Positions 9,176-49,223 are shown, counted from the stretch's first letter. The stretch: 64,000 bases of DNA from Thermodesulfobacteriota bacterium (GCA_964291405.2 OZ219926.1:3840001-3904000), one strand, 5' to 3'. Made by a program: numbers and translations. Notes: a model not told the origin generated them from the letters alone.

Positions 9176-10287
9176 TAGCTGGCTCCTCCCGCGACAGCGC
9201 GTTGCGGCTGCGAGTCGGCAAACGCGGGCATGACCTCTTTGGCAAAAAGCCGCAGACTGCCGAGGACCTGGGCCTGCGGAATGATCTCGGCAGCGTTGAG
9301 GAGGAAATTGACGCGGTCCACGCCGCTGGCTTCCCATTTTTTGAGTTCACCGATGAGATGTTCGGGATTCCCGACCGCGATCCCTTCCGGGGCTTTGAAC
9401 TGATCGCCGGGGCTGGATGCCTGGCGTCGCAGGGAGGGCAGCAGACCCGCGGCTGGATAAGATTTGGCTGGATATGCCTCTTTTGCCATATCCAACTGGG
9501 CCGCCATGTAATTGAAATGGCGAATCATCTTCATGCCGGTTTTGGCGCCGGTTTCATTGTCCGGGTGGCAGTACAGGAAGTTGACGGTCGCAACCTGGTT
9601 GTTCACAAACGCACCAACCGGATTACAGTTCTGCACGCGGCGGCGATACTCTTTGACCTTGGCTTCCTGCTCGGCAAAGCTGGTAAAGGTCACCCCCAGA
9701 CAGCCGATGCCGCGATCCGCGGCGTCAAGCTCGGTGCCCGGACTGGTGACGGCCACCCACATGGGCGGATGGGGTTTCTGATAGGGCTTGGGCAGCACCG
9801 CCCGTGACGGCATGGAGAAATACTGGCCCTCATAGCCAAAGCGCTCCTGCGTCCACATCTTCGGGATGCAGTGGACAAACTCGTCCCAGCTCTTCTTGGT
9901 CTCGTCCGGACTGGCCCGAAAGCCTCCCAACTCGGTCCAGGTTGCCGACCGTCCAGTCCCGAACTGGAGCCGTCCGCCGGATAAAATATCCAGCACCGCG
10001 GCGCGTTCGGCAATCCGAATCGGGTGGTTGAATTCCGGCACGCAAATGACGATGCCGTGGCCGACGTTGATATGCTTGGTCTGCATGGCGCACGCCGTCA
10101 GAAAAAGCTCGGGAGACGAACAGTGGGAGTATTCTTCCAGGAAGTGATGCTCTACCGCCCAGACCTGCTCAAAGCCGAGTTCGTCGGCCAGGCGGACTTG
10201 CTCCAGCGCATTCATATAGACGCTGCGCTCGGCCTCTTGGTCCCAGGGCCGGGGAACGGATAGCTCATAAAAAATACCGAACTTCAT
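9175..10287 (-). CDS. LLM-class flavin-dependent oxidoreductase (luciferase-like monooxygenase)
   Basis: MKFGIFYE, WAVEHHFLEEYSH, HPIRIAERAAVLDILSGGR, PKPYQKPHPP. Confidence 0.92.
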   Translation of the reverse strand: MKFGIFYELSVPRPWDQEAERSVYMNALEQVRLADELGFEQVWAVEHHFLEEYSHCSSPELFLTACAMQTKHINVGHGIVICVPEFNHPIRIAERAAVLDILSGGRLQFGTGRSATWTELGGFRASPDETKKSWDEFVHCIPKMWTQERFGYEGQYFSMPSRAVLPKPYQKPHPPMWVAVTSPGTELDAADRGIGCLGVTFTSFAEQEAKVKEYRRRVQNCNPVGAFVNNQVATVNFLYCHPDNETGAKTGMKMIRHFNYMAAQLDMAKEAYPAKSYPAAGLLPSLRRQASSPGDQFKAPEGIAVGNPEHLIGELKKWEASGVDRVNFLLNAAEIIPQAQVLGSLRLFAKEVMPAFADSQPQRAVAGGAS

Positions 10288-14795: not shown

Positions 14796-14978
14796 GGTCT
14801 CTCCTTCGCGAATTTTGCCGTCAGTGTCGCACTTGCCAGCCTGCATATCTCACCACGTGTCCTCGTGCGAGAGAGAATTTCTCCTCTTTCCCGCCTTGTC
14901 TTCCCCCGGTCCTTATTTTAGGCTGCAAGCCGGTCACGCGACACTGGTGAATTCGTCTCCACCGTGGAGGAACTTTGG

Positions 14979-31705: not shown

Positions 31706-33928
31706 ATGGTGGTCGGAAAGTCGAAAGGTGGAGGGGCGAAAAGTCGAAAGGTGGATGAAACTCCCCGTCTCTTTGACCGGGCATCCTCCCCACCCCCTCT
31801 TATCAAGGAGGGAGAACCGGCGCGTTCTTTCCGACCGCGCCAGCCGCCGCTCAAAAATTCGGTGCAGTACGTCAAGGGCGTGGGGCCGCGGCGGGCCGCA
31901 CAGTTGGCGCGGTTAGGCATAGAGACGGTCGAAGATCTGCTCTACCACATTCCCTTCCGCTATCAGGATCGGCGCGAAATCAAGAAAATTTGTCATCTTC
32001 AGGTGGGGGATGAGACGGCGGTCACCGGTCAAATCGCCCGTATGGAACGGCGCTTTCTGGCCCGCCGCCGTCGCTGGGTGCTCGAAGCCGTTGTCCGAGA
32101 CGAAACCGGTTTTCTCTTCCTGCTGTGGTATCACCAGCATCGCTATTTTCAGCAGCGCTATCAACTTGGTCAGCAGGTCCTGCTGTACGGCAAGGTCGAG
32201 AAGGGCATGAAGGGCGGCAAGTGGATGATCCACCCGGACATGGAGCCGCTGGAAGAAGAAGACGAGACCGCCCGTGTCTTGCCCATTTACAATAAGACCA
32301 CCGAAATGACGGTGGCTGCCATGCGCCGGGTCGTGCATGGTGCCGTTGACCGCTACGTCGATCAGGTCGCCAACGGCGTGCCACAGGAAATTTGTGATCG
32401 CTTGAACCTGATGCCGCTCAATCACGCCCTGCGGCAGTTGCACTTCCCCCCGCTCGATACTGAGGTTGTTGAACTCAATGAGGCCGCCTCTCAGGCGCAC
32501 CGGGCCGTGGTGTTCGATGAACTCTTTTATTTGCAACTGGGCATGGCCCTGCGCCGGCGCAATACCGTTCGGGAAGAGGGGTTGTCCATTGTGCCGGGAC
32601 CGCTCGTCCAGCAGATATATAGTATCCTGCCGTTTCAATTGACCGCAGCCCAGGAGCGGGTGGTTGAGATGATTTTTCGGGATATGGCGGCTCCCCACCC
32701 CATGAACCGCCTGGTCCAGGGAGATGTTGGCTCGGGCAAGACGATCGTAGCCTTCTTTGCGGCCCTGGCCGCCCTCGATAGCGGCTACCAGGTGGCTTTC
32801 ATGGCTCCGACGGAGCTCTTAGCTGAGCAGCACTACCGGACGCTGACGCCGCTGGCTGAGCAACTCGGCCTGTCCATGACGCTGCTGACCGGAGAAATCC
32901 GCCCGAAACGGAAACAAGAGATCTATGGTCTCCTGGAACGGGGCGAGGTCGAGGTCGCGGTTGGCACGCATGCCCTGATCCAGGAGGGCGTGCGCTTTCG
33001 GCATCTGGGTCTGGCCATCGTGGATGAGCAGCATCGCTTTGGGGTGATGCAGCGCGCCGCCCTGCGAAAACGCGGTGCGAACCCGGACATTCTGCTGCTG
33101 ACCGCAACCCCAATCCCCCGCACTCTGGCCCTGACCCTGTACGGCGACCTGGATGTCTCAGCTATTGATGAACGCCCGCCTGGCCGCAAGCCGATCACGA
33201 CCCATGTGTTCCATGAAGGCGAGCGAAAAAAAGCCTATCATCTCGTCAAAGACCAGCTCGAACGGGGCCATCAAGCCTATGTGGTCTATCCGCTGGTCGA
33301 GGAATCCGAGAAGTCCGACCTCAAGGCTGCGACCTCCATGGCTAAAGAGCTGGCCCAGACTTTCTTTGCCGACTATTCGGTCGGGCTCGTGCATGGCCGC
33401 ATGAAGGGCGGTGAAAAAGAAGCGGTTATGCAGCGCTTCAAGGCTGGCGAGCATCATTTGCTGGTTTCGACTACCGTCATTGAGGTCGGCATTGACGTGC
33501 CGAACGCGACCGTCATGGTGATTGAGCATGCCGAGCGCTTCGGTCTGGCACAGTTGCACCAGTTGCGCGGTCGAGTCGGACGCGGGCAGGCCGCCTCCTC
33601 GTGTTTGCTGCTGGCCCAGTACGCGCCGGGCGACGAGTCCCAGCGGCGTCTTCAGGTCATGACGGAAACCGATGACGGCTTCAAAATTGCCGAAGCTGAC
33701 TTGGCGTTTCGCGGGCCGGGCGAGTTTCTGGGCACACGCCAGTCCGGCATGCCCGACTTCCGGGTGGCCAATATCGTGCGTGACAGCAAACTGCTGGAAA
33801 CCGCGCGAGACGAAGCCCTGACCTGGCTCGAACGTGACCCCAATCTGACCACCCCCGAATCCCGCCGGCTACGCGCCGTCCTCGAAGACCGCTGGGCCGG
33901 CCGGCTGGAACTGGCCAGGGTGGGGTGA
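31706..33928 (+). CDS. recG: ATP-dependent DNA helicase RecG (start uncertain, 31706 or GTG 31751)
   Basis: VKGVGP, QGDVGSGKT, DEQHRFG, TATPIPRT, QLHQLRGRVGRG, RGPGE. Confidence 0.95.
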   Translation: MVVGKSKGGGAKSRKVDETPRLFDRASSPPPLIKEGEPARSFRPRQPPLKNSVQYVKGVGPRRAAQLARLGIETVEDLLYHIPFRYQDRREIKKICHLQVGDETAVTGQIARMERRFLARRRRWVLEAVVRDETGFLFLLWYHQHRYFQQRYQLGQQVLLYGKVEKGMKGGKWMIHPDMEPLEEEDETARVLPIYNKTTEMTVAAMRRVVHGAVDRYVDQVANGVPQEICDRLNLMPLNHALRQLHFPPLDTEVVELNEAASQAHRAVVFDELFYLQLGMALRRRNTVREEGLSIVPGPLVQQIYSILPFQLTAAQERVVEMIFRDMAAPHPMNRLVQGDVGSGKTIVAFFAALAALDSGYQVAFMAPTELLAEQHYRTLTPLAEQLGLSMTLLTGEIRPKRKQEIYGLLERGEVEVAVGTHALIQEGVRFRHLGLAIVDEQHRFGVMQRAALRKRGANPDILLLTATPIPRTLALTLYGDLDVSAIDERPPGRKPITTHVFHEGERKKAYHLVKDQLERGHQAYVVYPLVEESEKSDLKAATSMAKELAQTFFADYSVGLVHGRMKGGEKEAVMQRFKAGEHHLLVSTTVIEVGIDVPNATVMVIEHAERFGLAQLHQLRGRVGRGQAASSCLLLAQYAPGDESQRRLQVMTETDDGFKIAEADLAFRGPGEFLGTRQSGMPDFRVANIVRDSKLLETARDEALTWLERDPNLTTPESRRLRAVLEDRWAGRLELARVG
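31717..31755 (+). repeat. 16-bp direct repeat AAAGTCGAAAGGTGGA x2
   Basis: Exact copies at 31717-31732 and 31740-31755, at the carB-recG junction. Confidence 0.6.
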
Positions 33929-33948
33929 GCCTGACGCCGTTCCGCATT

Positions 33949-34557
33949 TCATTTTTTCGGCTTACCAGGGATCATTTCTAAAGACTCGATATCACGAGTG
34001 TTCAAATACACCCCACCCTGCGTTAAATCTCGTCGGATATGAAGGTCGTTGTCCACGAGATACGCTGGACGGAGGAGGAACTCATGATCTTCAGCCGCAG
34101 GGTCAAAAGAGTATTCCTTTACCCAGCCCAGGTAGAGTACGTCCTGCTTGGTACGAGCGAGTACCCAGAGGTCATCCTTGGGAGCATTGTCAACAACAAC
34201 ATGCCAGATAGCCTGGGGGTCAGGGGTTGGAAAGAAGTCAAGTTTGATACGGAGCCAATGCCCGGCGATAAGAATACCGCCCCAAATAGCCCCTCCACCG
34301 AGTAGAACTGCAATCATCATGGGCTGGATTTCGGAGCCCGAATCTGGGTTTAGGATGTCAGGGTCTTTACAGCCAAGCATATAAGCCGCAGTTGAGAGTC
34401 CTAAAAGTATTAGAAAGCTATGCAGGATGCTCCAGCCAATGGCCTCAAACCGAGACAGGGGCTTGGCCGGGTAGCGCACCCGATAAATCTGCATGGCGAG
34501 GAAACCAGGTAGCAAATAGAGAAGGAGGACGAGGGTATCGCCAAGAGGAATCTTCAT
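33949..34557 (-). CDS. DUF6338-like membrane protein (3 TM helices plus predicted Sm-like beta domain)
   Basis: 202 aa; LLYLLPGFLA first TM, two further hydrophobic segments, then WVLARTKQDVLYLGWVKEYS...FLLRPAYLV...GGVYLNTRDIESLEMI. Family name from recall. Confidence 0.7.
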   Translation of the reverse strand: MKIPLGDTLVLLLYLLPGFLAMQIYRVRYPAKPLSRFEAIGWSILHSFLILLGLSTAAYMLGCKDPDILNPDSGSEIQPMMIAVLLGGGAIWGGILIAGHWLRIKLDFFPTPDPQAIWHVVVDNAPKDDLWVLARTKQDVLYLGWVKEYSFDPAAEDHEFLLRPAYLVDNDLHIRRDLTQGGVYLNTRDIESLEMIPGKPKK

Positions 34558-34598
34558 AGTTCCAGTGGCTTCGGAGAAAGTCTGTTGTTGCTGGGTTG

Positions 34599-34796
34599 CT
34601 ACGAATCATCATTACCTGTTTTTTGCAGCGTCGCATCCGAGTTATCGCTCCCACTCGGTTGTTGTGAACCCTGGCCACTCGGTTGTTGTGGGTTCTGGAC
34701 TATAACCGGTGGGCTGGAATCTGGATCTTTATTGGTGTGTGTGTACGACCTCAAGAGATCGGGGTTGAAATTGGAATGATCATTGCGCTTCGGCAT
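34599..34796 (-). CDS. 65-aa low-complexity peptide (DLLRSY motif), upstream of the DUF6338-like gene
   Basis: GGAGGT RBS 4 nt before ATG 34796; MPKRNDHSNFNPDLLRSYTHTNKDPDSSPPVIVQNPQQPSGQGSQQPSGS...; internal 16-bp direct repeat encoding QQPSG twice. Confidence 0.65.
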   Translation of the reverse strand: MPKRNDHSNFNPDLLRSYTHTNKDPDSSPPVIVQNPQQPSGQGSQQPSGSDNSDATLQKTGNDDS

Positions 34797-34888
34797 ATTT
34801 ACCTCCAAATAGAAGTTAGTTAGCTAGATTCCTCTTACTATAGACGGACAACCGAATGCAAACTGAGGCATCACCGGATCACCAAGGT

Positions 34889-37800
34889 ATGAACATCAAC
34901 AATACTGTACAGGGCAGTCTGTTTGCCCGCGACTTTCTGACGGAATCCATCTCGCAGTTATCCGACTGGCAGGCTGTTGACGATGCGGCCCTGGACGAAT
35001 TTGAACGCGCGCTGCGGAGTATCTTCGACCCCTTCCCGACCGACCAGACCCCCAACGAGAGCCAGACCGAGGACGATCTGATCTGGCCGGTACTCGAAGC
35101 CTTGGACTGGACGGCCAGCCTGCGCCAGCAGAATCTCTCGTCGCGCGGTCGGGACGACGTGCCCGACGGTTTGCTCTTTGCCGACGAGGCGACCAAGGGC
35201 CGCGCCAACCGTTACCAGCAGGAATGGAGGCGTTACGAGTACGGCTCAGCCGTGGTCGAGTCCAAACGTTGGTAACGTCCGCTTGACCGGCGCTCCGACC
35301 GGCGGGGCGAGGAGACCGCGCCCTCGACCCAGATGTTGCGCTACATGCGACGGGTGGACGACCTGACGAACGGTGCGTTGCGCTGGGGCATGTTGATCAA
35401 TGGAGCCAAGTGGCGGCTGTACTGGGCTGGTGCGCGGTCCGTATCGGAACAGTTCTTCGAGCTTGACTTGGCGGCGGCCCTGAATCTGCCCGGCCATAAC
35501 GACGGCCTGTTCGCGCTGTCCGAGACCGACCGCCGGCACTGCCTCAAGCTGTTTTTGCTCTTCTTCCGGCGTAACGCCTTCCTGTCCGATCCTGCCACCG
35601 CAGATTCGCGCACGCTACACCAGCGCGTTCTCGATGAGGGCCGCGTTTACGAAGAACGGGTGTCCGCTGATTTGTCCGAGTTGGTTTTCAAACAGGTATT
35701 TCCCAAGTTGGCTCGGGCCATTTCCGAAGCTGCCCCGGACGCACCGTTGTCCGAGGTGCGTGACTCGGCCTTGATTCTGCTCTATCGGTTGCTGTTTATC
35801 CTGTATGCCGAAGACCGCGACCTGCTGCCGGTGCGGGATGAGCGCTACGACGATTACGGCCTGCGCGACAAGGTGCGGGGCGACATTGGGCGCCGTAAGA
35901 GCCAGGGCGATACCTTCTCAGCCAGCGCGGCCCGTTATTGGTCAATCATTGACGATCTGTGCCGAGCGATTGACCAAGGCGATACCTCGATTGGCCTGCC
36001 GCCCTATAACGGCGGTCTGTTCGACCGGCAACGCACGCCGCTGCTGACCACCGTCCGGTTGGGTGATGCGGTCATGGCCGACGTGATTGACGCGCTCTCG
36101 TTTGAGGTGACCGACCAGGGCCGGCGCTATATCAACTACCGTGATCTGAGCGTGCAGCAACTCGGTTCAATATACGAACGCCTGCTCGAATACGAAGTCG
36201 TCCGCGACGGCACCGCAATCAACGTGCAGCCTAATGTGTTCGCTCGCAAGGGCTTGGGCAGCTATTACACCCCGGACGATCTCGTAGAGGTGATTCTCAA
36301 GGAGACGGTCGGCCCGTTGGTCGAGTCCTGCACGGAGGCTTTTGCCAAGAGGGTAAGGCGCATTCGTCGGAGTCGCCGCGAGCCGAGCGCCGGACTTGCC
36401 GACCTCAGGCGGCTCGATCCTGCCGAGCGGCTCTTGGAACTGAAAATCTGTGATCCGGCCATGGGTTCCGGGCATTTTCTGGTCAGTCTGGTGGACTATC
36501 TGGCCGACAGCGTAATTGCCGCTCTTGCCGAGGCTCAGGCTACGGTTGAGAACTATGTTTCGCCGTTGACCGAGCGGATTGACGATATTCGCACCACCAT
36601 CCTGCATAATGCCAGCGAACGCGGCTGGACCATAGACGCGGAACAGCTTGACGACCGTCACATCATTCGCCGCATGGTGCTCAAGCGCTGCGTGTACGGC
36701 GTGGACAAAAACCCCATGGCCGTTGAACTGGCCAAGGTGTCGCTGTGGCTGCATACCTTTACCGTAGGGGCACCGCTGAGTTTTCTGGACCACCATTTGC
36801 GCTGCGGCAACAGTCTGTTCGGCTGCTGGGCGCGTCAGGGCATCGAGAAGATGAGTGCCGGTGAACCGGGCTGCGGACGCGGCCAACGCCATGCAGGTTG
36901 TTGAGCATCTGACGGATGCCGAGATTGCCGAGGCCCACCAGTCCGCCCAGACCTTTGCGCAGGTGGAAGCCATGACCGCGCCGCTCGACGCGTTTCTGTC
37001 GCTGCTGCACGCCCTGGACTGGCTGGATATCCGAAATCGTGACGACACGGCTGCGCTGCATGCTTTTTTCGAGGGCCGCCTGGGCGACCCGCTCGATATT
37101 GCACCGGGACAGTGCCCCGTCTCGACCGCCACACCCGACGGCGAACGGTTCGCCGGGCTGTTGGAACGGGCACGCACTCTCATGGCCGAAGAGCGCTTTC
37201 TGAACTGGCAGGCCGCATTTCCCGGTGTGTGGACAAATCTGAAGAATGTGGAGCCGGACGGCGGCTTTGACGCGGTCATCGGCAACCCGCCCTGGGACCG
37301 TATCAAGCTGCAACAGGTCGAATGGTTCGCGGCCCGCCGCCCCGAGATTGCCCTGGCCCAGCGCGCTGCGGACCGCAAGCGTATGATCGCTGCCTTGGAA
37401 AGGGAGGGCGATCCGCTGAGCCGCGATTTTGCCAAGGCGAGCGAACGAGCCGTCGCTGCCACGCGCATGGCGCGGGCGTGTGGCGATTACCCCTTGTTAT
37501 CGCGTGGCGACGTGAATCTCTATTCCCTGTTTGTCGAGCGGGCCATGACGCTGGTTAAGCCGACGGGCATGGTTGGCCTGCTCGTGCCGTCCGGCATTGC
37601 GTCGGACAAGACCGCCGCCGCGTTTTTTCAGGGCGTGGCAACGGAGGGGCGGTTGCGGGCGTTGTACGACTTCGAGAATCGTAGAACCAAGTTCAATGCA
37701 CCGCCGTTTTTCCCGGACGTGGATAGCCGTTTCAAGTTCTGTGCAATCGTGGCCAGCCCGACATCAACCAGCGAGCCTGCCCACTGCGCGTTCTTTTTGC

Positions 37801-38942
37801 AGGATGTCTCCGAACTCAACGACCCGGAGCGGCGTTTCCCGCTGACTGCTGAGGACTTCGCTCGTGTCAATCCGAATACCGGCACCGCACCCATCTTCCG
37901 CACCAGCCGTGACGCCAAGCTAACGACTGCAATCTACGAACGCCTGCCTGTGTTGGTAGATTGCTCTGGTGGCGAGGAAGTCAAGGCGTGGCCGGTACGA
38001 TACTCGACCATGTTTCACATGACGAACGATTCCGGCCTGTTCCGTACACGGGAAGAGTTGGAAGAAGGGGAGGGTGCATGGCCTATTGGTGGCAACCGTT
38101 TTGGTAGCCCAAGTGGGGAATGGGTACCGCTATACGAGGGAAAGATGGTGCAGGCGTTCGATCACCGGGCTGCGAAAGTGGTGGTTAATCCCGAAAATCA
38201 GCATCGACCGGCCCAGCCCGTGCCTGCTACCCTGGAGCAGCACCGAAACCCGGCCTGGTTGCCTGACCCGCAGTTTTGGGTGGCTACATCGGAGTGCGGC
38301 TACTCCCCGGAATCGGGTTGGGTTCTGGGCTTCAAGGAAATCACAGCCCCCACGAATGTCAGGACCTTTATCGCTGCGCTCCTGCCTGCGGTAGGTTTCG
38401 GGAACAAGGTACCAATCCTCAAATCGGAGACGGCGGACCGAACCGAATGGCTGTTGGCCGCCAATCTCAATGCAACGATTTTCGATTTCGCAGTACGGCA
38501 GAAAGTACAAGGCCAGACCTTGAACCTCTTCATCGTCGAACAGCTACCCGTCGTTCCGCCCGACCGCTACAACACCGTCCGTTTCGGCCCCAAGACCGCC
38601 GGCGAGATTGTCCGCGAGGCCGTGTTGGAACTCACCTACACGGCTCACGACATGGCCTCTTTTGCCCGTGACCTGGGCCATATTGATGAGACTGGCGAAG
38701 TAAATCCGCCGTTTGTGTGGGACGAAGAACGCCGGTTGCATCTGCGGGCCAAGCTCGACGCGGTGTTCTTTCATTTGTACGGCGTCACCGACCGCGATGA
38801 CGTGCGCTACATCTATTCCACCTTTCCCATTGTCGAACGCCAGGAAACGGCGACCTATGGCCGCTACCGCTCGCGTGATTTGTGTCTGGCGTGGCTGAAT
38901 GCCTTGGCGGCGGGAGAGCCGGACGCAGAGATTGATTTGTGA
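34889..38942 (+). pseudogene. Type IIG (Eco57I-like) fused restriction endonuclease / N6-adenine methyltransferase, disrupted
   Basis: VPDGLLF...VVESKRW nuclease motif, LILLYRLLFILYAED, YNGGLF, QLGSIYE, GSYYTP, DPAMGSGHFL (motif I), GNPPW (motif IV). In-frame TAA at 35273-35275 and a frame change near 36850 split it into three ORFs. Confidence 0.85.
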
Positions 38943-38973
38943 CGCAAGTGTCTCATGGTATGCTGTGGAACTG

Positions 38974-41900
38974 ATGGGTCATATGCAGGGCTACATCCAA
39001 CTTGATCGGAAATTTCTCGAGTTCGACGAACGGTTACAAGCTGGGGAAAGTGATGACTCTCTGTTTGCGTTTGACCTCTCATCTAAAATAGGGAAGTCCT
39101 GGTCGGACATACTGAAAAATCGTTGTACCGTTATTCTGGCCGAAGCGGGTTCTGGAAAAACTACGGAGTTACGTGCCCAGACGGAGCGTCTTCGTCGCGA
39201 GGGCCAATCGGCTTTTTTTTGCCGACTAGAAATACTGGCTGACGAGTCTTTTGAAGACGCCTTGGAGGCCGACACATCTCAGGATTTCCCGTCGTGGAGA
39301 GATAGCGACGCGCACGGCTATTTCTTCCTCGACTCGGTTGATGAGGCACGGCTTGCCAGTCCCGGCGCTTTTGAGACGGCTGTCATCCATTTCGCCAAAG
39401 TGGTCAGGCACTATATGCACCGCTCAACGGTCGTCATTTCGACTCGTCCCAATGCGTGGCAAGCTCAAGCTGACCCGGACATGCTCAAAAGACGATTAGC
39501 CCTCCCTGAAGAAGTTAAACCGGCAAGCAACGATACAAGGAATTATGATCTCAATAATGGAGGCCGACTTCCCACACGAGGGAGCAAAGGGGCCGAAACT
39601 ACTGGGATGGGGAAAAATTCGTTCGTCATAATGCAGATGTCGCCCTTGAATCAAAGCCAAATACAAATTTTTGCAGAGGCCAAAGGAATAACCGACATCA
39701 CCGCATTTATGGAAGCCATCAACCGCGCAGATGCGGACGTTTTTGCAACTCGGCCGGCGGACCTGCCCGGTCTCATTGATGCTTGGAAAAAGAAGGAACA
39801 CCTCGGGAACTATTCCGAAGTTGTCTTGAAAAATATTGAACTCAAATTGTCGGAAGAGAATCCCGTTCATGGGCCACAAGCCCCACTCTCGCAAGACCGT
39901 GCGCTTGAAGGTGCAAGAGTCCTGGCTGCCGCAGTGACCTTGACGACATGCACGTCAATTCTGCTTCCTGACGATCCTATTGAAGAGACCCTTCGTGAAA
40001 AATGCCTGGACCCTAAAGAAGTTCTGCCAGACTGGCAGTCTGCTGAGATTCGCGCCCTCCTCGGTCGTGCGCTGTTTGAAGAAGCGCTCTACGGTTCCGT
40101 TCGATTTCATCACCGGACCGCACGCGAGTATCTTACGGCATGTTGGTTTAAGAAGTTGCTTTCGCAACAAAAGAATCGCCGCAATATAGAATGCCTGTTC
40201 TTTGCCCGCCCCTATGGCGTCCTCCCCGAAATAGTTGCTCCTTCTCTCAAGCCGGTAGTCGGCTGGCTCGCCGTCTGGGACCCAGGAATTTGTACTCGTA
40301 CCTTGCACACCGACCCGAAAGTTTTGTTGGAATACGGAGACGCTTCGGCACTTGATATCAGGACCCGTGAAACCCTGTTGAGAGATTTTGCAAGCCGTTA
40401 CGAGAACCGTGATGACACTCCACTGAGCCTTCATGTTCGAGAAGTACGCCGTTTGGCGGATCACCGATTAGCCGGGGTCATACGTGATCTTCTCCAAAAA
40501 TATCGCAATCACGGCGACGTCAGAAGACTCTTGCTGCGTATCATTCGAGAAGAACGAATTCCTGATTGCGGGCAACTCGCCCACTCGTTGGCAATTGACC
40601 CCGAAATGGACGTTTACACGCGAAGTACCGCGGTACGGGCGGTCGGCTTGGCCGGAAACCCTGACGAGCAAAAACGGTTAGCCGAGGAAATTCTCGGTCA
40701 AGTTTCCAGTCTGGAGCAAGATATTGTGGGGGCAGCTATTGAAACGCTTTGGCCCAATGCCTTCACAGATCAAGATGTTTTGACGATTCTTGAAAAGACA
40801 CCTGTTCCTGAGCAGTTCGGGGCTGCCGAGTTGAAGTATGCAATCTCGCAAATGCCGGGGCGCATTTCGGACAGGAGCCGAGTCCAAAACCTTCTCGCCG
40901 CTGTGCTCAAACTCGTCTCACAGCCTCCCTGGCACCAAGACGAAATTTGCCGAATCTCGAAAAGATACGACTGGCTAGTAAACCTGCTCTGGGCTTTAGT
41001 GAAAAGGTTTAATTTCTTGCATGGCGCTCCAGAGACCGTTCCTGGGTTTCTATCGGCTATATCTTTGTGTGCTCGGTCCCATCATTATATTCGTCATTAT
41101 AGAGGCGATATGGATGATGAGATTGCTCAACTTCTTCATGGTAATGCCAAAATCAGACATGCGTTGTTCTGGTATAAGTATGAACAAGCCAGACAAGTGG
41201 AAGAGGAGCCTATTACTGATTATCGATTTATTTATGGATTCCCGCGTACAAGTGTCCTGGAGAAAGAGGATAGGGACTATTACCTTCAAGAACTTCGTGA
41301 GCGTTCGGACCCCGTAGAGAGACAGATCGTAATGTCTGTTCTGTTCGGGGTTTATAATGCCAGTAAAGATGTTGTCTTGCGCGAACGCATTAGGGATGCA
41401 GTGAGTGGTGCCCCGGACCTCGTAGCCGAATTCAACCGACTACTCACACCGTCCGCGCCCTCCGAAGCATACCTTGAGGCGCAAAGAGAGATTTCTGAAA
41501 GTCTCTTGCAAAGACAACAACAGGAAATAGAGGATGCCCAAGCACGTCAAGATTGGATTGAAAGATTGAAAGCCGACCCGAGTATGGTCGGCGACCTGTC
41601 CTTAGCTGCTGAGGGACAAGTCTGGAATAATACCTATGGGCTTCTACAGGAGATTGAAGAGAAAACCCATGCAGGTAATCGTCTAACAGCGTCCCAATGG
41701 GAACTTCTCATCCCTGAGTTTGGAGAGATCGTCGCCCAACGGTTCCGCGATTTCTGTCGAGATTTCTGGAGACGCTACACGCCGTCCGTGCGGTCCGAGA
41801 CCGCGGAGGGAAACCAGACGATAGCACCCGCTCTGATTGTTGGTACTAGCGGATTGGCTATGGAGGCCAACGGCGATGAGACATGGGCCGCCCAACTAAC

Positions 41901-43341
41901 CGATAATGAAGCGGAAATTGCGACGAGATACGCGCTTCGGGAACTGAATGATTTTCCAGATTGGTTCCCGGCTCTTCTGCAAGCGAAGCCTGAACCGGTC
42001 AGAAAGATGTTTCGGGAAGAGATTGAGTGGGAATGCAAAGCATTTCCTCCCGATAGCGTCCCACTCTATATTCTGGAAAAACTGCGCAACACCAGACTGC
42101 AAATGGGCAATGATCTGCGGGATGACATTACTGATATTCTGACGACTAAGACGAATATCCTGGTCAAGCCGCTAGAGAATGCTTTGGCTATTGTCCTGAA
42201 AGATTCTACGCTGTTACCCAAAACATTTCGGGATACTGTAGCTCGTCAGGCAGAAGAAGTTTCTTCCGAACAGCAAAAAGTGCTGTGGTTGTCAGCACTA
42301 CTCTGTCTGGATGCCGAGCACGCCCTCGATATCATGGAACCCTGGGTGAACAGTGGGACCAAGTGGGACGGAGAATGTCGAACGTCTCTTATTATCAATC
42401 ATCTCTGGGGACGCGATGCCGGGAGCTTCAATAGCGAACAGTGCAGCTATGAGCAGCTTGGTTGTCTTTCGCGACTGCTGGAAATTGTCCATTCCCATAT
42501 TCGGCTAGAGGAAGATATTGATCATGACGGTGCGTATTCTCCTGACCTCAGGGATAAAGCTCAGGACGCTCGTAGGCACCTCCTTAACTTGCTCTGTAGC
42601 ATTCCGGGAAAACTCACACGCGACACTCTAATTCGACTCTCAGAGTCCTCTCCACTTGAAAATTTCAAAGACCACTTACTCAATCTGGCCGACAGCCGTG
42701 CCGAAGCCGATGCGGATTTCAGCGCGTGGACTCCAAAGCAAGTCGCTGAATTCGGACGTGACGCAGAGCGGAGCCCGGAAACACAGAAGGAGCTTTTTGA
42801 AATTGCTGTGTCCCGCCTTGATGATATTAAGTTTGGTTTTGAAGAGGGTGATGATAGTGAAGCCAGCCTCTGGAGAAAGGCGGAGGATGAGCTTGAGTTG
42901 CGGCGTGCTATCGCGAACCGCTTGATGCTCGTCTCACGTAACAGGTACACAACCGGGTCGGAGGAGGAATTCGCCGATAAGAGTCGTACCGACATCCGTC
43001 TCCATAATCCCAAGGTAGATACGCGGATACCTATCGAAATCAAAATTGCCGGAAAGTGGAGCGCAAACCAGTTGCGCAAGCGCATGGAGAAGCAACTTGT
43101 AGGTCAATATCTCCGTGAAGCCTGTTACGGCGTATTCTTGTTGGTTAATCGGGGTGCGGAGGGTGACAAGAAGTATTGGCGACACCCCAAGAAACTCAGT
43201 TTTTCCACGCTCGTTCAATGGCTGAAAGACGAGAGCAGGACACTGCTGAACGAGCATGTCCAAGATGTAGAGGTAATTGGAATCGATCTGACGCGAAGAA
43301 CCGAGAAGGCTACCCAGAAAGCAAAGGAAGCAGGAGCGTAG
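38974..43341 (+). CDS. NACHT/STAND NTPase with long helical region and C-terminal PD-(D/E)XK nuclease-like domain
   Basis: Walker A VILAEAGSGKTT, Walker B YFFLDSVDE, sensor VISTRP, winged-helix FHHRTAREYLTA; C-terminal EEEFADKSRTDIRL...IPIEIK...QLVGQYL. Start at 38974 or 38983. Confidence 0.82.
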   Translation: MGHMQGYIQLDRKFLEFDERLQAGESDDSLFAFDLSSKIGKSWSDILKNRCTVILAEAGSGKTTELRAQTERLRREGQSAFFCRLEILADESFEDALEADTSQDFPSWRDSDAHGYFFLDSVDEARLASPGAFETAVIHFAKVVRHYMHRSTVVISTRPNAWQAQADPDMLKRRLALPEEVKPASNDTRNYDLNNGGRLPTRGSKGAETTGMGKNSFVIMQMSPLNQSQIQIFAEAKGITDITAFMEAINRADADVFATRPADLPGLIDAWKKKEHLGNYSEVVLKNIELKLSEENPVHGPQAPLSQDRALEGARVLAAAVTLTTCTSILLPDDPIEETLREKCLDPKEVLPDWQSAEIRALLGRALFEEALYGSVRFHHRTAREYLTACWFKKLLSQQKNRRNIECLFFARPYGVLPEIVAPSLKPVVGWLAVWDPGICTRTLHTDPKVLLEYGDASALDIRTRETLLRDFASRYENRDDTPLSLHVREVRRLADHRLAGVIRDLLQKYRNHGDVRRLLLRIIREERIPDCGQLAHSLAIDPEMDVYTRSTAVRAVGLAGNPDEQKRLAEEILGQVSSLEQDIVGAAIETLWPNAFTDQDVLTILEKTPVPEQFGAAELKYAISQMPGRISDRSRVQNLLAAVLKLVSQPPWHQDEICRISKRYDWLVNLLWALVKRFNFLHGAPETVPGFLSAISLCARSHHYIRHYRGDMDDEIAQLLHGNAKIRHALFWYKYEQARQVEEEPITDYRFIYGFPRTSVLEKEDRDYYLQELRERSDPVERQIVMSVLFGVYNASKDVVLRERIRDAVSGAPDLVAEFNRLLTPSAPSEAYLEAQREISESLLQRQQQEIEDAQARQDWIERLKADPSMVGDLSLAAEGQVWNNTYGLLQEIEEKTHAGNRLTASQWELLIPEFGEIVAQRFRDFCRDFWRRYTPSVRSETAEGNQTIAPALIVGTSGLAMEANGDETWAAQLTDNEAEIATRYALRELNDFPDWFPALLQAKPEPVRKMFREEIEWECKAFPPDSVPLYILEKLRNTRLQMGNDLRDDITDILTTKTNILVKPLENALAIVLKDSTLLPKTFRDTVARQAEEVSSEQQKVLWLSALLCLDAEHALDIMEPWVNSGTKWDGECRTSLIINHLWGRDAGSFNSEQCSYEQLGCLSRLLEIVHSHIRLEEDIDHDGAYSPDLRDKAQDARRHLLNLLCSIPGKLTRDTLIRLSESSPLENFKDHLLNLADSRAEADADFSAWTPKQVAEFGRDAERSPETQKELFEIAVSRLDDIKFGFEEGDDSEASLWRKAEDELELRRAIANRLMLVSRNRYTTGSEEEFADKSRTDIRLHNPKVDTRIPIEIKIAGKWSANQLRKRMEKQLVGQYLREACYGVFLLVNRGAEGDKKYWRHPKKLSFSTLVQWLKDESRTLLNEHVQDVEVIGIDLTRRTEKATQKAKEAGA

Positions 43342-43346
43342 ACATT

Positions 43347-43518
43347 ATGCGGAAGGCTAAAATAGATTCCCCTGCGACAAAGGCCGACTTGGCTGTTTTG
43401 GAAGCCCTGCCGTGACGAAGACATTGATACGAGCGATATCCCGAAGGGTACAGACTGGAGCGATGCCGTCCGGGGGAAGTTTTATCGTCCAGTGAAAAAG
43501 AAAAATCGGTCGGATTAG
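43347..43518 (+). pseudogene. BrnA-family antitoxin remnant (frameshifted and truncated)
   Basis: MRKAKIDSPATKADLAVLEALP, then after a 1-nt shift DEDIDTSDIPKGTDWSDAVRGKFYRPVKK, the typical BrnA N-terminus; the C-terminal RHH segment is missing. Confidence 0.75.
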
Positions 43519-43538
43519 CGTAGCGTAATCCGACCGAT
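43505..43538. repeat. REP-like palindrome
   Basis: ATCGGTCGGATTA-gcgtagcg-TAATCCGACCGAT, perfect 13-bp arms. Confidence 0.75.
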
Positions 43539-43621
43539 ACGGTCCGTCCGAACATGTCGGGTGACGAGACAGTGTGAAAGTGAGAGGGGTGTTCTCATTG
43601 CTGCCGGAGAAATCAGAACAA

Positions 43622-43651
43622 TAGAATTTTGGCCTTAGAATTTTGGCCTTA
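43622..43651 (+). repeat. 14-bp tandem duplication TAGAATTTTGGCCT x2 in a putative promoter
   Basis: Exact adjacent copies at 43622-43635 and 43636-43649, ending ~22 bp before the peptide ATG at 43672. Confidence 0.7.
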
Positions 43652-43671
43652 CAATCCTCAGGGGGAAACCA

Positions 43672-43836
43672 ATGCGCAAGAATAATACATCTGCGGCTCC
43701 GCGTCCGTCCAACAAACAGAAGAAAAACGGCCTTCGGGTCGATTTCTCTCGCGGCTATCAACCTGTGGCGACCGAGCAGTCTCCAAAAAAACCGCCCACC
43801 AATCCGCCAAATCAAGGCACCGCCGGAAAGAAATGA
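43672..43836 (+). CDS. 54-aa basic Pro-rich peptide (DFSRGYQP motif)
   Basis: Below the ORF-track size cutoff. AGGGGG RBS-like sequence, ATG 43672, MRKNNTSAAPRPSNKQKKNGLRVDFSRGYQPVATEQSPKKPPTNPPNQGTAGKK, TGA 43834-43836. Confidence 0.65.
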   Translation: MRKNNTSAAPRPSNKQKKNGLRVDFSRGYQPVATEQSPKKPPTNPPNQGTAGKK

Positions 43837-43907
43837 CCTCGTGGGCGGATTCTTGCTTGCTGCCTATCGCTGTCGGCTGTCGAGGCCTGGATACCGCCCC
43901 CAGCAAT

Positions 43908-43936
43908 TTGACCGGTTTCGGTAAATCCCCTATATC
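43908..43936 (+). promoter_or_regulatory. Possible sigma70 promoter for the alaC-hom-thrC operon
   Basis: TTGACC-N17-TATATC, about 65 bp upstream of the ATG. Confidence 0.35.
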
Positions 43937-44002
43937 CTTAGCAGGAATTGAGGCCCTCGCGGAGATAAGCTGAACGGCCTGTCTTCCAAGAGGTGAGACA
44001 AC

Positions 44003-45217
44003 ATGGAATTCCCACGTATTAAACGGCTTCCGCCCTACCTCTTTGCCACCCTGGACAAGATGAAAATGGAGGCACGCTGGGCGGGGGAGGATATTATTGA
44101 TTTTGGGATGGGCAATCCCGACCACCCTTCTCCGCAACACGTTGTGGAGAAGTTGGTTGAGGCCGCGGCCAAGCCACAGAATCACCGTTATTCAACCTCA
44201 CGGGGGCTCTATAAGCTGCGTCTGGCGATTTGCGACTGGTATAAACGCCGCTTTGAAGTGGAGCTCGATCCCGATTCCGAATCCATTGTGACCATTGGGT
44301 CGAAAGAGGGCCTCTCCCATCTGGCGCTGTCGATTCTCGGTCCGGGTGATGTGGCCATCTGCCCGAGTCCGACCTATCCCATTCACCAGTATTCAATTGT
44401 GATGGCCAACGCCGATTTGCGGGTCGTTCCGCTCCGACCGGGGGAAGATTTCTTTACCTCGCTTCAGGAAACGGTCCAGCAGTGTTGGCCGCGGCCCAAG
44501 GTCCTGCTGCTGTGTTTTCCGCATAATCCGACAACGGCTGTTGTAGACCTTGAATTTTTTACGCGCGTCGTAGAATTCGCCCACGAGCATAAGTTGTTTG
44601 TCATTCACGACTTTGCCTACGCCGACCTCTTTTTTGACGGCTATACACCGCCGAGTTTCCTCCAGGTGCCTGGCGCAAAAGAGATCGGCGTCGAGTTTTT
44701 TACCCTGTCGAAATCCTACGATATGCCGGGTTGGCGGGTGGGCTTTGCCTGCGGTAATCCAGAGGCGATCATGGCCCTGGGTCGGCTCAAAAGCTATTTT
44801 GACTACGGTATTTTCCAGCCTATTCAAATCGCCGCGATTCATGCTCTGAACGGTCCCCAGGACTGCGTGGAAGACATGCGCCGGCGCTATCGTCTCCGCC
44901 GCGATGTCCTGATTGACGGCTTGGAGCGGATAGGCTGGCATATCCCCAAACCCAAAGGCACGATGTTCGTCTGGGCGCAAATCCCGGAGCCCCTGCGGGC
45001 CATGGGCTCCATGGCTTTTGCGGAATTTCTCCTGACGGAAGCCAAAGTCGCGGTATCCCCAGGGGTCGGTTTTGGGCCGTATGGAGAAGACTACGTCCGC
45101 TTTGCCTTGATTGAGAATGAGCATCGGACCCGGCAGGCCGTTCGCGGTATCCGTAAAGCCTTTGGCGGTGCCAGCGCTCCGGCCGAGCCGGCGGATAAAA
45201 AGCTTCGGGCGGTATAA
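44003..45217 (+). CDS. alaC: PLP-dependent class I/II aminotransferase, AlaC type
   Basis: [59 protein letters not shown]. Confidence 0.85.
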
Positions 45218-46533
45218 TGGCGGGGGAGGGGGTCAAACTCGGGCTTATCGGGTTGGGCACGGTCGGTTCCGGGGTGGTCCAACTCCTGGACCGGCAGCGC
45301 GAGGCGTTTGCTCGAAAAATAGGCGCACCCCTGCAACTCGTCCACGTTGCGAGTCGGAGCATAGACACAAAGCCGCACCCGCCTCTTCCCGGTGTGCGTT
45401 TATCGGCCGACCCGTGGAGCGTCGTGCAGGATGCCGAGGTCGATATTGTTTTGGAACTCATTGGTGGAACCGACCCCGCCCGCTCCCTCGTTTTGGAAGT
45501 GATGGCGCGGGGCAAATCCGTTGTGACGGCAAATAAAGCCCTGCTAGCTCTCCACGGCGATGAGATTTTTGCCGCAGCGGAAGCGCACGGGATCCGCTTG
45601 GGGTTTGAAGCCAGCGTGGCCGGCGGCATCCCGGTTATTCGGACGCTGCGGGAAGGTTTTGTCGCGGACCGCAACAAGGCGCTGTTCGGGATTGTGAACG
45701 GAACCTGTAATTACATTCTGGCGACGATGAGCGAGGACGGCGCCGAGTTTGCTCCCGTCCTCCGCAGAGCCCAGGAGTTGGGCTTGGCGGAAGCCGACCC
45801 CCGTATGGATGTCGATGGCATTGACGCTGCTCAGAAGCTGACGCTGCTCATCATGCTCGCCTTTGGCGTGCGGGTGCCGGTCGATGCCGTGTATACCGAA
45901 GGGATTCGGCAGCTCGACCAGATCGACATTGCCTTTGCGCGCGAGTTCGGCTATGCGATCAAGCTGTTGGCGATTGCCAAGGAAGAGTCCGGCGTGCTGG
46001 AAGCCCGAGTCCATCCGACTATGATCCCGCAGGACAGTCTGCTGGCGGGTGTGGGTGGCGCGTATAATGCCATCTTTACGCAGGGGGAAGCCCTCGGCTC
46101 TTCGCTCCAATTCGGACAAGGCGCGGGCAGCTTGCCGACTGCGGCGGCGGTCTTGTCTGACGTGGTTGATAGCGCGCGGGCGCAGACGAAGCAGCAACAG
46201 CCCCGGCCACCGCTCGGTTGTGCCTGGACGGAGCTGAAGCCGGCCGCTGTCCGGCCCATGGATGAACTGGTGAGTGAGTATTATCTGCGTTTCATGGCCG
46301 TCGACCGTCCTGGGGTGCTCACCCAGATCAGCGGGATTCTAGGCGACCAGGACATCAGCATTGCCTCGGTGATTCAGCGTGGACGGAGCGACGGTGATAA
46401 TACCGTGCCCTTGGTCATGCGGACGCATGCCGCGACGGAACGGAATTTGAAGACGGCGATGACATTAGTGGACCAATTGCCCATCGTGCAGGGCAAGTCC
46501 GTATATGTCCGTGTTGAGGAGAGCCTTGGCTAA
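45217..46533 (+). CDS. hom: Homoserine dehydrogenase with C-terminal ACT domain
   Basis: GLGTVG, VVTANKAL, FEASVAGGIP, NGTCNYIL, AEADP, DRPGVL. Confidence 0.95.
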   Translation: MAGEGVKLGLIGLGTVGSGVVQLLDRQREAFARKIGAPLQLVHVASRSIDTKPHPPLPGVRLSADPWSVVQDAEVDIVLELIGGTDPARSLVLEVMARGKSVVTANKALLALHGDEIFAAAEAHGIRLGFEASVAGGIPVIRTLREGFVADRNKALFGIVNGTCNYILATMSEDGAEFAPVLRRAQELGLAEADPRMDVDGIDAAQKLTLLIMLAFGVRVPVDAVYTEGIRQLDQIDIAFAREFGYAIKLLAIAKEESGVLEARVHPTMIPQDSLLAGVGGAYNAIFTQGEALGSSLQFGQGAGSLPTAAAVLSDVVDSARAQTKQQQPRPPLGCAWTELKPAAVRPMDELVSEYYLRFMAVDRPGVLTQISGILGDQDISIASVIQRGRSDGDNTVPLVMRTHAATERNLKTAMTLVDQLPIVQGKSVYVRVEESLG

Positions 46534-46572
46534 CGCAGCAGTCCTGATGGAAAGAGTCGGTCAGAGACAGGT

Positions 46573-47994
46573 ATGACACACAGTGCGATGATAGATGCCC
46601 CTGCTCCTCCGCTGACGGCTCCGAACCCCTCGCCGTTTCGGGCCTGGTTTGGCTGTGCGGCCGGCTGCCCTGGTGAACATCCGCTCAACGAGATCCTGTA
46701 CTACTGCCCGACCTGCGGTGGGCTGCTGGACGTACAGCACGACATCGCCGCTCTCAAGACGCGAACGCCCCAAGAATGGCGACATTTGTTCGATGAGCGC
46801 TATCGACGCACACTCTACCCCTATGGCAGTGGGGTGTGGGGCAAAAAAGAAATGGTCTGTCCGGCTATTGACGATGCGAACATCGTTTCCACCTATGAGG
46901 GCGGCACCAATCTGTTCTGGGCCGAGCGACTCGGACGCCACATCGGTGTTGATGATCTATGGGTCAAACAGTGCGGCAACTCCCACACCGGGTCATTCAA
47001 GGACCTGGGCATGACCGTGCTCGTCTCTATGGTGAAGCAGATGATTGCCGACGGCGTGTCTATCCCTGCGGTTGCGTGCGCCTCAACCGGCGATACGTCG
47101 GCGGCCCTGGCTGCCTACTGCGCCGCGGCCGGCATCCCGGCTATTGTGATTCTGCCCCGTAATCGGGTGTCTACGGCGCAACTTATTCAGCCCATGGCAA
47201 ACGGGGCGCTGACCTTGTCGCTCGATACCGATTTTGATGGCTGTATGCGGGTCGTGCGCGAGCTGTGTACTAAGGAAAACATCTATCTGGCCAATTCGAT
47301 GAACAGCCTCCGGCTTGAGGGCCAGAAGACTATCTCGATTGAGATCGTTCAGCAGTTTGACTGGGAAGTCCCCGATGTGGTGATCGTCCCCGGCGGAAAT
47401 CTGGGTAACGTTACGGCAATCGGACGGGGCTTCCTGCTCATGCAGGAACTTAGGCTGATTGATCGCCTGCCCCGTCTGGTCTGTGCCCAGGCCGAACGCG
47501 CCAATCCGTTGTACAAGAGTTTTACCGCCGGCTTTGAAAAATATCGTCCAGTCAAAGCCAAAAAAACTCTGGCGTCAGCCATTCAGATCGGGAACCCGGT
47601 CAGTGTGCATAAGGCCATTCGGGTTCTCCAGACCTTCGATAGTATTGTTGAACAGGCCAGCGAGGAAGAGTTGGCCGAAGCGTCGGCCCTGGCAGATTTG
47701 ACCGGCCTGTTCAACTGTCCGCACACCGGGGTGGCGCTCGCCGTGCTGTTGAAACTGGCGCGCAGTGGGCAGATACGGTCACACGAACGGGTCGTGGTGA
47801 TATCCACTGCCCATGGGCTTAAGTTTACCGACTTTAAACGGCGTTACCATGAAGGGCGGTTGCGTGGGGTGGCCGCGCATTCCGCCAACAGGCCGATTGA
47901 ATCACCGGCCGATTATCACAGTGCCCGGGCCGCGATTTTCGGCGCGCTTGAGCGCAGGCAGGTATCTCCTGTTCACGGATTCCTAGATGGGTGA
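46573..47994 (+). CDS. thrC: Threonine synthase (plant-like long type)
   Basis: [18 protein letters not shown] (PLP Lys), [24 protein letters not shown]. Confidence 0.94.
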
Positions 47995-47999
47995 GAGGT

Positions 48000-49223
48000 A
48001 TGAAATACATCGTTCTTCAAGGTGATGGTATGGCGGACTGGCCGGTCGATGAACTCGGCGGGAAAACGCCTCTTGAGTACGCGCGGACGCCGCATATGGA
48101 CCATATTGCCTCTCACGGCATCTTTGGCCTCACCCAGACGATTCCCGAGGGCTATCCCTCGGGCAGCGATGTCGGAACCATGAGTCTGCTCGGCTATGAC
48201 CCGCGGCAATACCACACCGGCCGCTCGCCCATCGAAGCGGCCAGTATGGGGGTGGACTTGGGGCCGGAAGATATTGCGTTTCGGTGCAATCTGGTGACCC
48301 TGGGCCGTACAGCCGACGGAACCGAAACCATGCTTGACTTTGCGGCCGACCACATCCCCAGCGCTGATGCGGCCGAGTTGATTGGGACGCTTCAGCACGA
48401 GTTGGGCAGCGATGAGTTTTCCTTCTATCCTGGCGTGAGTTATCGGCACCTGCTGGTCTGGCACGGCGGCAAGGAAAAGATGGACACCACGCCACCGCAC
48501 GATATTACCGGTCAACCCGTCCAGAAGCACTGGCCTCAGGGAGATGGCAGCGAGCAACTGTGCTCGCTGATGCAGCGTGCCCGGGAGATCTGTGCCGAGC
48601 ATCCCGTCAATGCCAAGCGCCAGGCCGAGGGGCACAAGCCGGCCTCTTCGATCTGGCTGTGGGGGCAGGGCCGCCGTCCCGCCGTGCCGACGATTGACGA
48701 ACGCTTTGGTCTGAGTGGTTCGGTCATTTCCGCGGTTGATCTGGTCCGCGGTATCGGCGTTCTGGCCGGACTTGAGGTGATCCTGGTGCCCGGCGCGACC
48801 GGCTTTCTTGATACGAATTATCTCGGCAAAGCCGAATATGGTCTGGCCGCCCTGCGTGACAAAGATTTTCTCTTCCTGCACGTTGAGGCAACGGACGAAG
48901 CCGGTCATATGGGCGCGGCCGATAAAAAGGTCCAGGCGCTTGAGGATTTTGATGAGAAGGTCGTTGGGACTATCTTAGATGGTCTGGCCGCTTTCCCTGA
49001 GTGGACCATCCTGCTGATGCCCGACCACGCCACGCCCGTTGCGATCAAGACCCATTCGTCCGACCCCGTGCCGTTTGCCGTGCTCTCGTCCCATGACCGG
49101 CCGCCAGCGTCGCCAGCGGTGGGTTATAACGAGCCGTGTGCCAAAGCGACGAAGGTGTTTGTGGCTGAGGCCTGGCGTTTGATGGAGCACGTGATTCGCG
49201 GACAGGTGCGGGCCTTGGTATAG
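48000..49223 (+). CDS. apgM: Cofactor-independent phosphoglycerate mutase, ApgM (archaeal-type) family
   Basis: MKYIVLQGDGMAD, GKTPL, GSDVGTMS, DEAGH, PDHATP, THSSDPVPF. Confidence 0.88.
   Translation: MKYIVLQGDGMADWPVDELGGKTPLEYARTPHMDHIASHGIFGLTQTIPEGYPSGSDVGTMSLLGYDPRQYHTGRSPIEAASMGVDLGPEDIAFRCNLVTLGRTADGTETMLDFAADHIPSADAAELIGTLQHELGSDEFSFYPGVSYRHLLVWHGGKEKMDTTPPHDITGQPVQKHWPQGDGSEQLCSLMQRAREICAEHPVNAKRQAEGHKPASSIWLWGQGRRPAVPTIDERFGLSGSVISAVDLVRGIGVLAGLEVILVPGATGFLDTNYLGKAEYGLAALRDKDFLFLHVEATDEAGHMGAADKKVQALEDFDEKVVGTILDGLAAFPEWTILLMPDHATPVAIKTHSSDPVPFAVLSSHDRPPASPAVGYNEPCAKATKVFVAEAWRLMEHVIRGQVRALV

Follow-up and report, generated by a model that had tools for sequence, protein, structure and literature searches.

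The gene at 38974-43341 (+ strand) of a 64,000-nucleotide stretch of DNA from a Thermodesulfobacteriota bacterium (GCA_964291405.2 OZ219926.1:3840001-3904000, here called the window) appears to be a real and intact member of the HyoA family of NACHT antiphage genes that stands alone and was acquired horizontally, a reading to which we give a probability of about 0.85, and it very probably forms a single-gene anti-phage system. The encoded protein (1,455 aa plus stop) matches the NCBIfam equivalog model NF058534 (“NACHT domain-containing antiphage protein HyoA”) with 1357.8 bits, where the curated cut-off is 1200, and the alignment pairs aa 10-1442 with profile positions 1-1430 of 1430. A genome-level search with the same model gave 1357.6 bits, zero internal stops, and a single copy in the genome. 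The score of the window protein lies modestly above the cut-off, a genus relative (G019) scores 1607.6, and the function of the window copy is predicted from its sequence. The sister model EruA (NCBIfam NF058535) matched aa 215-1381 weakly, with 194.3 bits against a cut-off of 1000, and with a score so far below the cut-off the window protein is not an EruA. The window protein resembles the NF058534 family in its length class (1,430 profile positions vs 1,455 aa) and in the order of its parts, which is NACHT, a long middle region, and a C-terminal nuclease region, and differs in that it comes from a lineage near Candidatus Binatia metagenome-assembled genomes (MAGs) and not from a laboratory organism.

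A search of 5.8 billion proteins returned 327 relatives at E ≤ 1e-3, and most of the best 120 of these are 1,400-1,560 aa long and cover 99-100% of the query, implying that the NACHT-to-C-terminal-nuclease architecture is constant in a family of considerable size. The preliminary description of this DNA had presented the gene as a novel, inverted-architecture, single-gene defence system, possibly coupled to the upstream restriction-modification (RM) gene. The architecture stands, with a NACHT module, a C-terminal nuclease, no N-terminal effector, and no fixed partner, whereas the novelty and the coupling to the RM gene do not. Because NF058534 matches end to end and above its equivalog cut-off, the window gene is a further copy of a known defence family and not a new system, and the “inverted” architecture is the normal form of the HyoA family. 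As a discovery the gene is of small import, since the family already has a name and a curated model, and the literature describes tests of it and reports its trigger class (major capsid protein). The window copy extends the HyoA family to a poorly studied lineage near Candidatus Binatia MAGs, and it illustrates that PADLOC 2.0.0 and Pfam alone miss this family and that NCBIfam finds it.

The gene lies in a long, intact open reading frame (ORF) at 38899-43341 (+), and the preceding ORF stops at 38942. Two starts are usable, ATG 38974 (1,455 aa) and ATG 38983 (1,452 aa), and a Met equivalent to the one at 38983 is the start in several homologues; residue numbering throughout is counted from ATG 38974, and all parts of the gene are given on the + strand. 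The NACHT nucleotide-binding domain (aa 46-180, 39109-39513) carries the Walker A motif AEAGSGKT (aa 56-63, 39139-39162), the Walker B motif FFLDSVDEA (aa 117-125, 39322-39348), and the sensor motif ISTRP (aa 155-159, 39436-39450). Conservation was read from an alignment of the window protein with 31 homologues at 25-81% identity, 32 sequences together, in which G61, K62, D120, D123, E124, and R158 are invariant. A search of the PDB by sequence gave 0 matches with the protein and 0 with the 32-sequence profile. An AlphaFold2 model of aa 1-490 has a predicted local distance difference test score (pLDDT) of 81.1, and with this model Foldseek found 170 PDB matches at E ≤ 1e-3. Among the matches listed (ranks 1-50, similar chains omitted), all are NACHT modules of NLR proteins, the best being NLRP2 (E 1.5e-10); NLRP2/7/14, NLRC4, NOD2, and NLRP3 are included, and the alignments extend over ~450-570 columns. 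The first 490 residues are therefore modeled as an NLR-type NACHT module, and the description of the protein as NLR-like is borne out by the intact Walker A and B motifs and by these fold matches. Only 55 residues lie ahead of Walker A, too few for an N-terminal effector, as was remarked earlier. The domain is followed by a variable, low-confidence insert (aa 181-215, 39514-39618; pLDDT <50 at aa 181-213, 10% mean identity over the 31 homologues) and by the helical and winged-helix part of the NACHT module (aa 216-480, 39619-40413; 49.7% mean identity), which was assigned from the secondary structure of the model. Helices are seen in the models at aa 216-480 and again at aa 1190-1300.

The C-terminal PD-(D/E)XK-type nuclease domain (aa 1301-1455, 42874-43338) contains a D motif, RTDIRL (aa 1338-1343, 42985-43002), an ExK motif, IEIK (aa 1354-1357, 43033-43044), and a QxxxxY motif, QLVGQY (aa 1374-1379, 43093-43110), as had been noticed at the outset. 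E1306, E1330, D1340, E1355, K1357, Q1374, and Y1379 are invariant in 32/32 sequences. The model of aa 1181-1455 (pLDDT 87.1) consists of seven helices followed by an alpha-beta-beta-beta-alpha-beta core, where E1306 stands at the start of the first core helix, D1340 just ahead of the second strand, E1355 and K1357 on the third strand, and Q1374 and Y1379 on the next helix. Such a placement of residues is canonical for the PD-(D/E)XK nuclease superfamily. When the model was compared with 48,161 chains by VIA-align, the top match was BamHI (Z 8.1, root-mean-square deviation 3.8, 135 residues aligned), followed by CdiA-CT, OkrAI (Z 7.4), Can2, BstYI (7.3), LlaBIII (7.3), BspD6I (7.2), PaqCI (7.0), and BglII (6.9) and later by HamA, McrC, and EcoRV, with the limit that Z 7-8 is a range the tool calls common for models that have no clear match. 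Restriction-type nucleases are thus the best structural matches of the C-terminus, in line with the preliminary description. Taking together the VIA matches, the invariant catalytic set, and a sub-threshold match to PDDEXK_4, we accept the C-terminal ~150 residues as a predicted restriction-endonuclease-like nuclease.

Between these two ends lies the central region (aa 481-1300, 40414-42873), the most variable large part of the protein, which has no Pfam match. Mean identity in the middle region is 32-35% vs ~50% at the NACHT and nuclease ends, and between the two closest genomes with DNA, aa 481-830 evolve fastest, with an amino acid identity of 0.58 and the highest ratio of nonsynonymous (dN) to synonymous (dS) divergence, 0.38. 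We presume that this region is the sensor of a phage protein because such variability is expected of a sensor. An ESM Atlas search with aa 481-1300 returned unnamed clusters only, with scores of 0.80-0.87, below the 0.9 level at which a match is treated as a lead.

The known systems closest to the window protein suggest what this sensor may recognize. From the names, we take HyoA to be Hypnos (the system of van den Berg et al. 2024, Cell Host Microbe 32:1427, cited in PMC13581612) and EruA, the sister family, to be Erebus. Excerpts of PMC13581612 (Nature 2026) state that “Avs10 (Erebus/Hypnos/bNACHT64) sensed MCPs”, i.e., major capsid proteins, that the helical sensor of Avs10 binds the A-domain of HK97-fold major capsid proteins, and that cell death was lost in all cases on mutation or deletion of the effector. 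The corresponding excerpts of its preprint (PMC12803255) agree and add that each family recognizes a broad range of target homologues. In passages of PMC12390725, Erebus is among the DefenseFinder subtypes, and the phage inhibitor Bdi1 protects against Hypnos. The window protein is like Avs10 in being a STAND/NACHT pattern-recognition receptor whose aa 470-1185 are weakly predicted to bind an HK97 capsid protein; the tested representatives of Avs10 are enterobacterial, e.g., EhAvs10, and a capsid trigger for the window protein would be by analogy. With Avs1-4/AVAST and bNACHT25-type proteins it shares the logic of a STAND switch joined to a sensor and a nuclease, whereas their effector is N-terminal and that of the window protein is C-terminal. 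Parts of the preprint of Kibby et al. place some bacterial NACHT effectors at the extreme C-terminus and describe the bNACHT25 effector as an Mrr-like restriction-endonuclease.

To relate the central region to this trigger, the complex of aa 470-1185 with residues 104-385 of the mature HK97 capsid protein was predicted. The median score over three runs was 0.57 (individual values 0.61, 0.57, and 0.54), compared with 0.00 in each of three controls; contacts agreed to at least 54%, the pLDDT of the partner did not fall below 68, and the tool returned a verdict of “weak support”. In the calibration of this score, the mark was reached by 116/157 solved complexes and by 2/215 mismatches, and scores ≤ 0.60 held only 18/157 solved complexes and both of the mismatches. 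We count the prediction as mild support for a capsid trigger, since the published trigger of the family made this guess likely beforehand.

Based on these comparisons, the protein might work as follows. The central region (aa ~481-1300) would bind a newly made phage protein, which for the HyoA family would be the HK97-fold major capsid protein. Binding would unlock the NACHT switch (Walker A K62; Walker B D120/D123/E124) from its ADP-bound state, whereupon the protein would oligomerize, and oligomerization would join the C-terminal PD-(D/E)XK nuclease domains (D1340, E1355, K1357). The joined domains would then cut DNA and stop the phage at the expense of the infected cell. For the window copy, we infer the antiphage activity as well as the capsid trigger, the oligomerization, the DNA substrate, and the abortive infection. 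Somewhat unlikely, in our estimate, is the alternative that this is a true HyoA-type defence protein whose divergent copy senses another phage protein or a perturbation of the host and not the major capsid protein. The sensor region is both the least conserved (32-35% identity) and the fastest-evolving part of the protein, the predicted capsid binding is weak, and other bNACHT proteins differ in their trigger, for example bNACHT25, for which DnaJ-mediated sensing is reported. However, the family statement in the excerpts of PMC13581612 takes in Erebus, Hypnos, and bNACHT64 jointly, the recognition of target homologues by each family is described as broad in those of PMC12803255, and the capsid prediction stood at 0.57 vs 0.00 in all three controls.

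Several results weigh against assigning the window gene to the HyoA antiphage family, in addition to the unexceptional range of the VIA scores. Pfam gave no match for the protein at E ≤ 0.01, and relaxing the limit to E ≤ 10 brought up only P-loop, NACHT (E 0.13), nSTAND5 (E 0.0057), and PDDEXK_4 (E 0.0063) matches, all below threshold. PADLOC 2.0.0, with a library of 2023 that has no HyoA model, yielded a sole match, mad8 (E 0.0051, aa 43-83), which reflects the P-loop; it is NCBIfam that names the family. The C-terminal model found nothing in Foldseek at E ≤ 1e-3, where the top rows were FokI, McrC, EcoO109I, EcoT38I, and OkrAI. The literature search turned up no statement that equates HyoA with Hypnos, no phage-defence paper under the names HyoA or EruA, and no statement of the domain order of Avs10, and the names ‘Avs10’, ‘Hypnos’, and ‘bNACHT64’ are absent from those supplements of PMC13581612 that were examined. 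The antiphage role of the window copy and of its Binatia-type relatives is assigned by family. Also, the capsid prediction is a weak pass obtained with a stand-in from an E. coli phage, and the score could stem from resemblance within the family and not from binding by the window copy; a PF05065 capsid gene that could have served for a native test was not found in the genome (97.5% complete).

Another conceivable reading, the window copy having no known phenotype, is a non-immune gene with a mere likeness to HyoA, either a regulator of NACHT type or a selfish nuclease for element maintenance. We regard this as very unlikely because the full-length score exceeds a curated equivalog cut-off, the nuclease effector is present with an intact catalytic set, a recognized defence gene is the nearest large neighbour in 23/72 loci (L002 and L008 included, see below), and the gene combines a patchy distribution with a foreign base composition.

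The surroundings of homologous genes support a HyoA-family gene that stands alone. For the neighbour survey we used 72 of 80 homologous loci, leaving out L012, L026, L042, L050, L065, L068, L076, and L077, in which HyoA is short or partial, and from each flank took whichever ORF of 180 aa or more lay closest, up to a distance of 3 kb, for a total of 123 ORFs. PADLOC was run on 119 of them, the RM genes of L002 and L008 and giant ORFs in L060 and L069 being left out, and 23/119, distributed over 21/72 loci, had a match at E ≤ 1e-10. The matches include Dsr1, Dsr2, LmuB, PtuB, AbiD, AbiLii, and SoFic, and some others (PDC-S families, an SspA/DndA-like desulfurase, a kinase) may be something other than genuine defence genes. 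The nearest large neighbours vary from locus to locus, with many families or none, and HyoA is therefore stand-alone, often among other defence genes. Relatives of HyoA occur in 61 plasmid records (39 with at least 80% coverage, 30 predicted conjugative) and in 2 Acinetobacter phage records. In the Burkholderia glumae plasmids H1-H12 (e.g., NZ_CP130149.1 71557-77583), a HyoA homologue with 32.5% identity is split around an annotated ISNCY-family transposase.

Horizontal acquisition is suggested by three observations: the gene has a GC content of 50.8% vs 58.3% for the window, confirming the AT-richness remarked on earlier; HyoA above the cut-off is present in 2/41 related genomes, that of the window included; and it is missing from the same locus in relatives. 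The locus lies between recG and an aminotransferase gene. Its counterpart in L002, which like L008 comes from a Candidatus Binatia MAG, is syntenic with the window, with nucleotide identities of 89% for recG, 83-89% for the RM gene, 75% for HyoA, and 90% on the aminotransferase side. HyoA (38983-43338 in the window vs 10010-14371 in L002) shows dS 0.75 and dN 0.21, compared with dS 0.36-0.41 and dN 0.01-0.04 for the flanks (recG, the aminotransferase gene, and hom); this excess divergence could come from allele swapping, fast evolution, or an effect of base composition. Between recG and the aminotransferase gene lie ~10 kb in the window (33929-44002) vs ~1.6-7.8 kb in five genus relatives. In those relatives, compared at six loci (L082-L087) in the five genomes, HyoA is absent from the recG-aminotransferase locus in 6/6. 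A full RM gene without HyoA is found in L085, L086, and L087, part of one in L083, and small remnants in L082 and L084, so that the RM gene ranges across the genus from intact down to a 50-residue remnant. Because the RM gene or its remnants occupy these loci without HyoA, the RM gene is the older resident and HyoA a later addition, seen in the window and L002. The gap looks like a turnover hotspot for defence genes. One relative (G001:C1) has the recG-aminotransferase segment twice, at 38392-48686 and 5094618-5102667, one with a full RM gene and one with a remnant, and the duplicate may be an artefact of assembly or binning (contamination estimate 8%).

The neighbouring RM gene (34856-38942, +) is of Type IIG, recognized by PADLOC REase_MTase_IIG and DrmMI-like hits across three ORFs, and is disrupted in the window. 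The first break is a CAA-to-TAA nonsense change (TAA 35273-35275) directly after the ESKRW (ExK nuclease) motif, and the second is a frameshifting deletion near 36840-36900. L002 and L008 have CAA and CAG, respectively, at the codon of the first break, and their RM genes are open throughout. A Logan contig derived from short reads (run X1) reproduces 35059-37305 with no differences; run X1 is possibly the source sample, and the agreement is not independent support for the breaks. Run X2, from another study, contains 96% of the sampled words and has 40477-43364, within and just beyond HyoA, unchanged, and among the pieces listed from it none spans the two breaks. The dN/dS of the RM gene vs L002 is still 0.12-0.25. 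The RM gene is most likely a recent pseudogene.

The state of the RM gene bears directly on an earlier suggestion, namely that HyoA is co-transcribed with the Type IIG RM gene and acts either as its back-up or as a guard triggered by inhibition of the RM enzyme. Some features of the locus favour it: ATG 38974 follows the RM stop after only 31 nt on the same strand, matching the ~30 bp noted before; neither this gap nor the final 540 nt of the upstream gene yielded a sigma-70-like site; and the order of RM gene then HyoA recurs in L002 and L008. However, the RM gene of the window carries a nonsense codon and a frameshift where the L002 and L008 copies are open, and at the recG-aminotransferase locus of the genus relatives it occurs without HyoA in three loci and as a partial gene or remnant in the other three. 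The two genes also differ in GC content (60.7% for the RM gene, 50.8% for HyoA). Co-occurrence with Type IIG genes, which had been proposed as a check, proved rare: RM homologues lie within 10 kb of HyoA in 3/80 homologous loci (L002, L008, and L080), such an RM gene is the nearest upstream gene in 2/72, and PADLOC found a Type IIG enzyme in 0/119 of the other nearest neighbours. Because HyoA is stand-alone across loci and the RM gene is broken here, a back-up or guard role is unsupported, and we consider it extremely unlikely. The window also has some value as a clean natural case in which an immune gene has inserted next to a restriction-modification gene in decay.

How HyoA came to this site is a separate matter. 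It may have arrived by a recombination for which the 3’ end of the resident Type IIG RM gene served as anchor, the gap being a defence hotspot in the Binatia-like lineage, an account that we hold to be unlikely. It draws on L008, where 330-bp direct repeats from the 3’ end of the RM gene (9610-9939 and 14486-14815, 96.4% identical) bracket HyoA, as would be expected if a circular cassette had inserted there by a single crossover (Campbell-type). The dS of HyoA, twice that of its flanks, fits allele swapping at a fixed site, and the RM gene of the window decaying beside an intact HyoA would be immune-gene turnover caught in the act. Against this account, repeats of the L008 type are present in neither the window nor L002, and a repeat search of 33900-44100 found short chance-like repeats only, none bracketing HyoA. 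It is further weakened because the C-terminal third of the RM gene is more diverged in the HyoA-less relatives too, which may reflect variability of the target-recognition domain, and because the higher dS of HyoA may stem from its differing base composition. Joint transfer of the 3’ third of the RM gene together with HyoA was also entertained and rejected, the C-terminal part of the RM gene being more diverged in relatives that lack HyoA as well.

The remainder of the locus contains a few minor features. Between recG and the RM gene lies a DUF6338 gene (33949-34557, - strand; Pfam E 3e-15, GC 50.9%), which has no counterpart in L002 or in the six loci compared from the genus relatives and appears to be a separate small insertion. 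Two exact 16-nt copies of CCACTCGGTTGTTGTG stand 24 nt apart at 34651-34690, in the AT-rich stretch that precedes the RM gene. An Rfam scan of 33000-45000 found 0 families, and a promoter scan found 5 sites vs 3.8 expected, none of them upstream of HyoA. The terminator scan found 14 sites vs 7.1 expected, with no convincing + strand terminator 3’ of HyoA; its strongest terminator-like site is a hairpin with a 13-bp stem followed by a T run at 43505-43538 (- strand), between HyoA and the aminotransferase gene.

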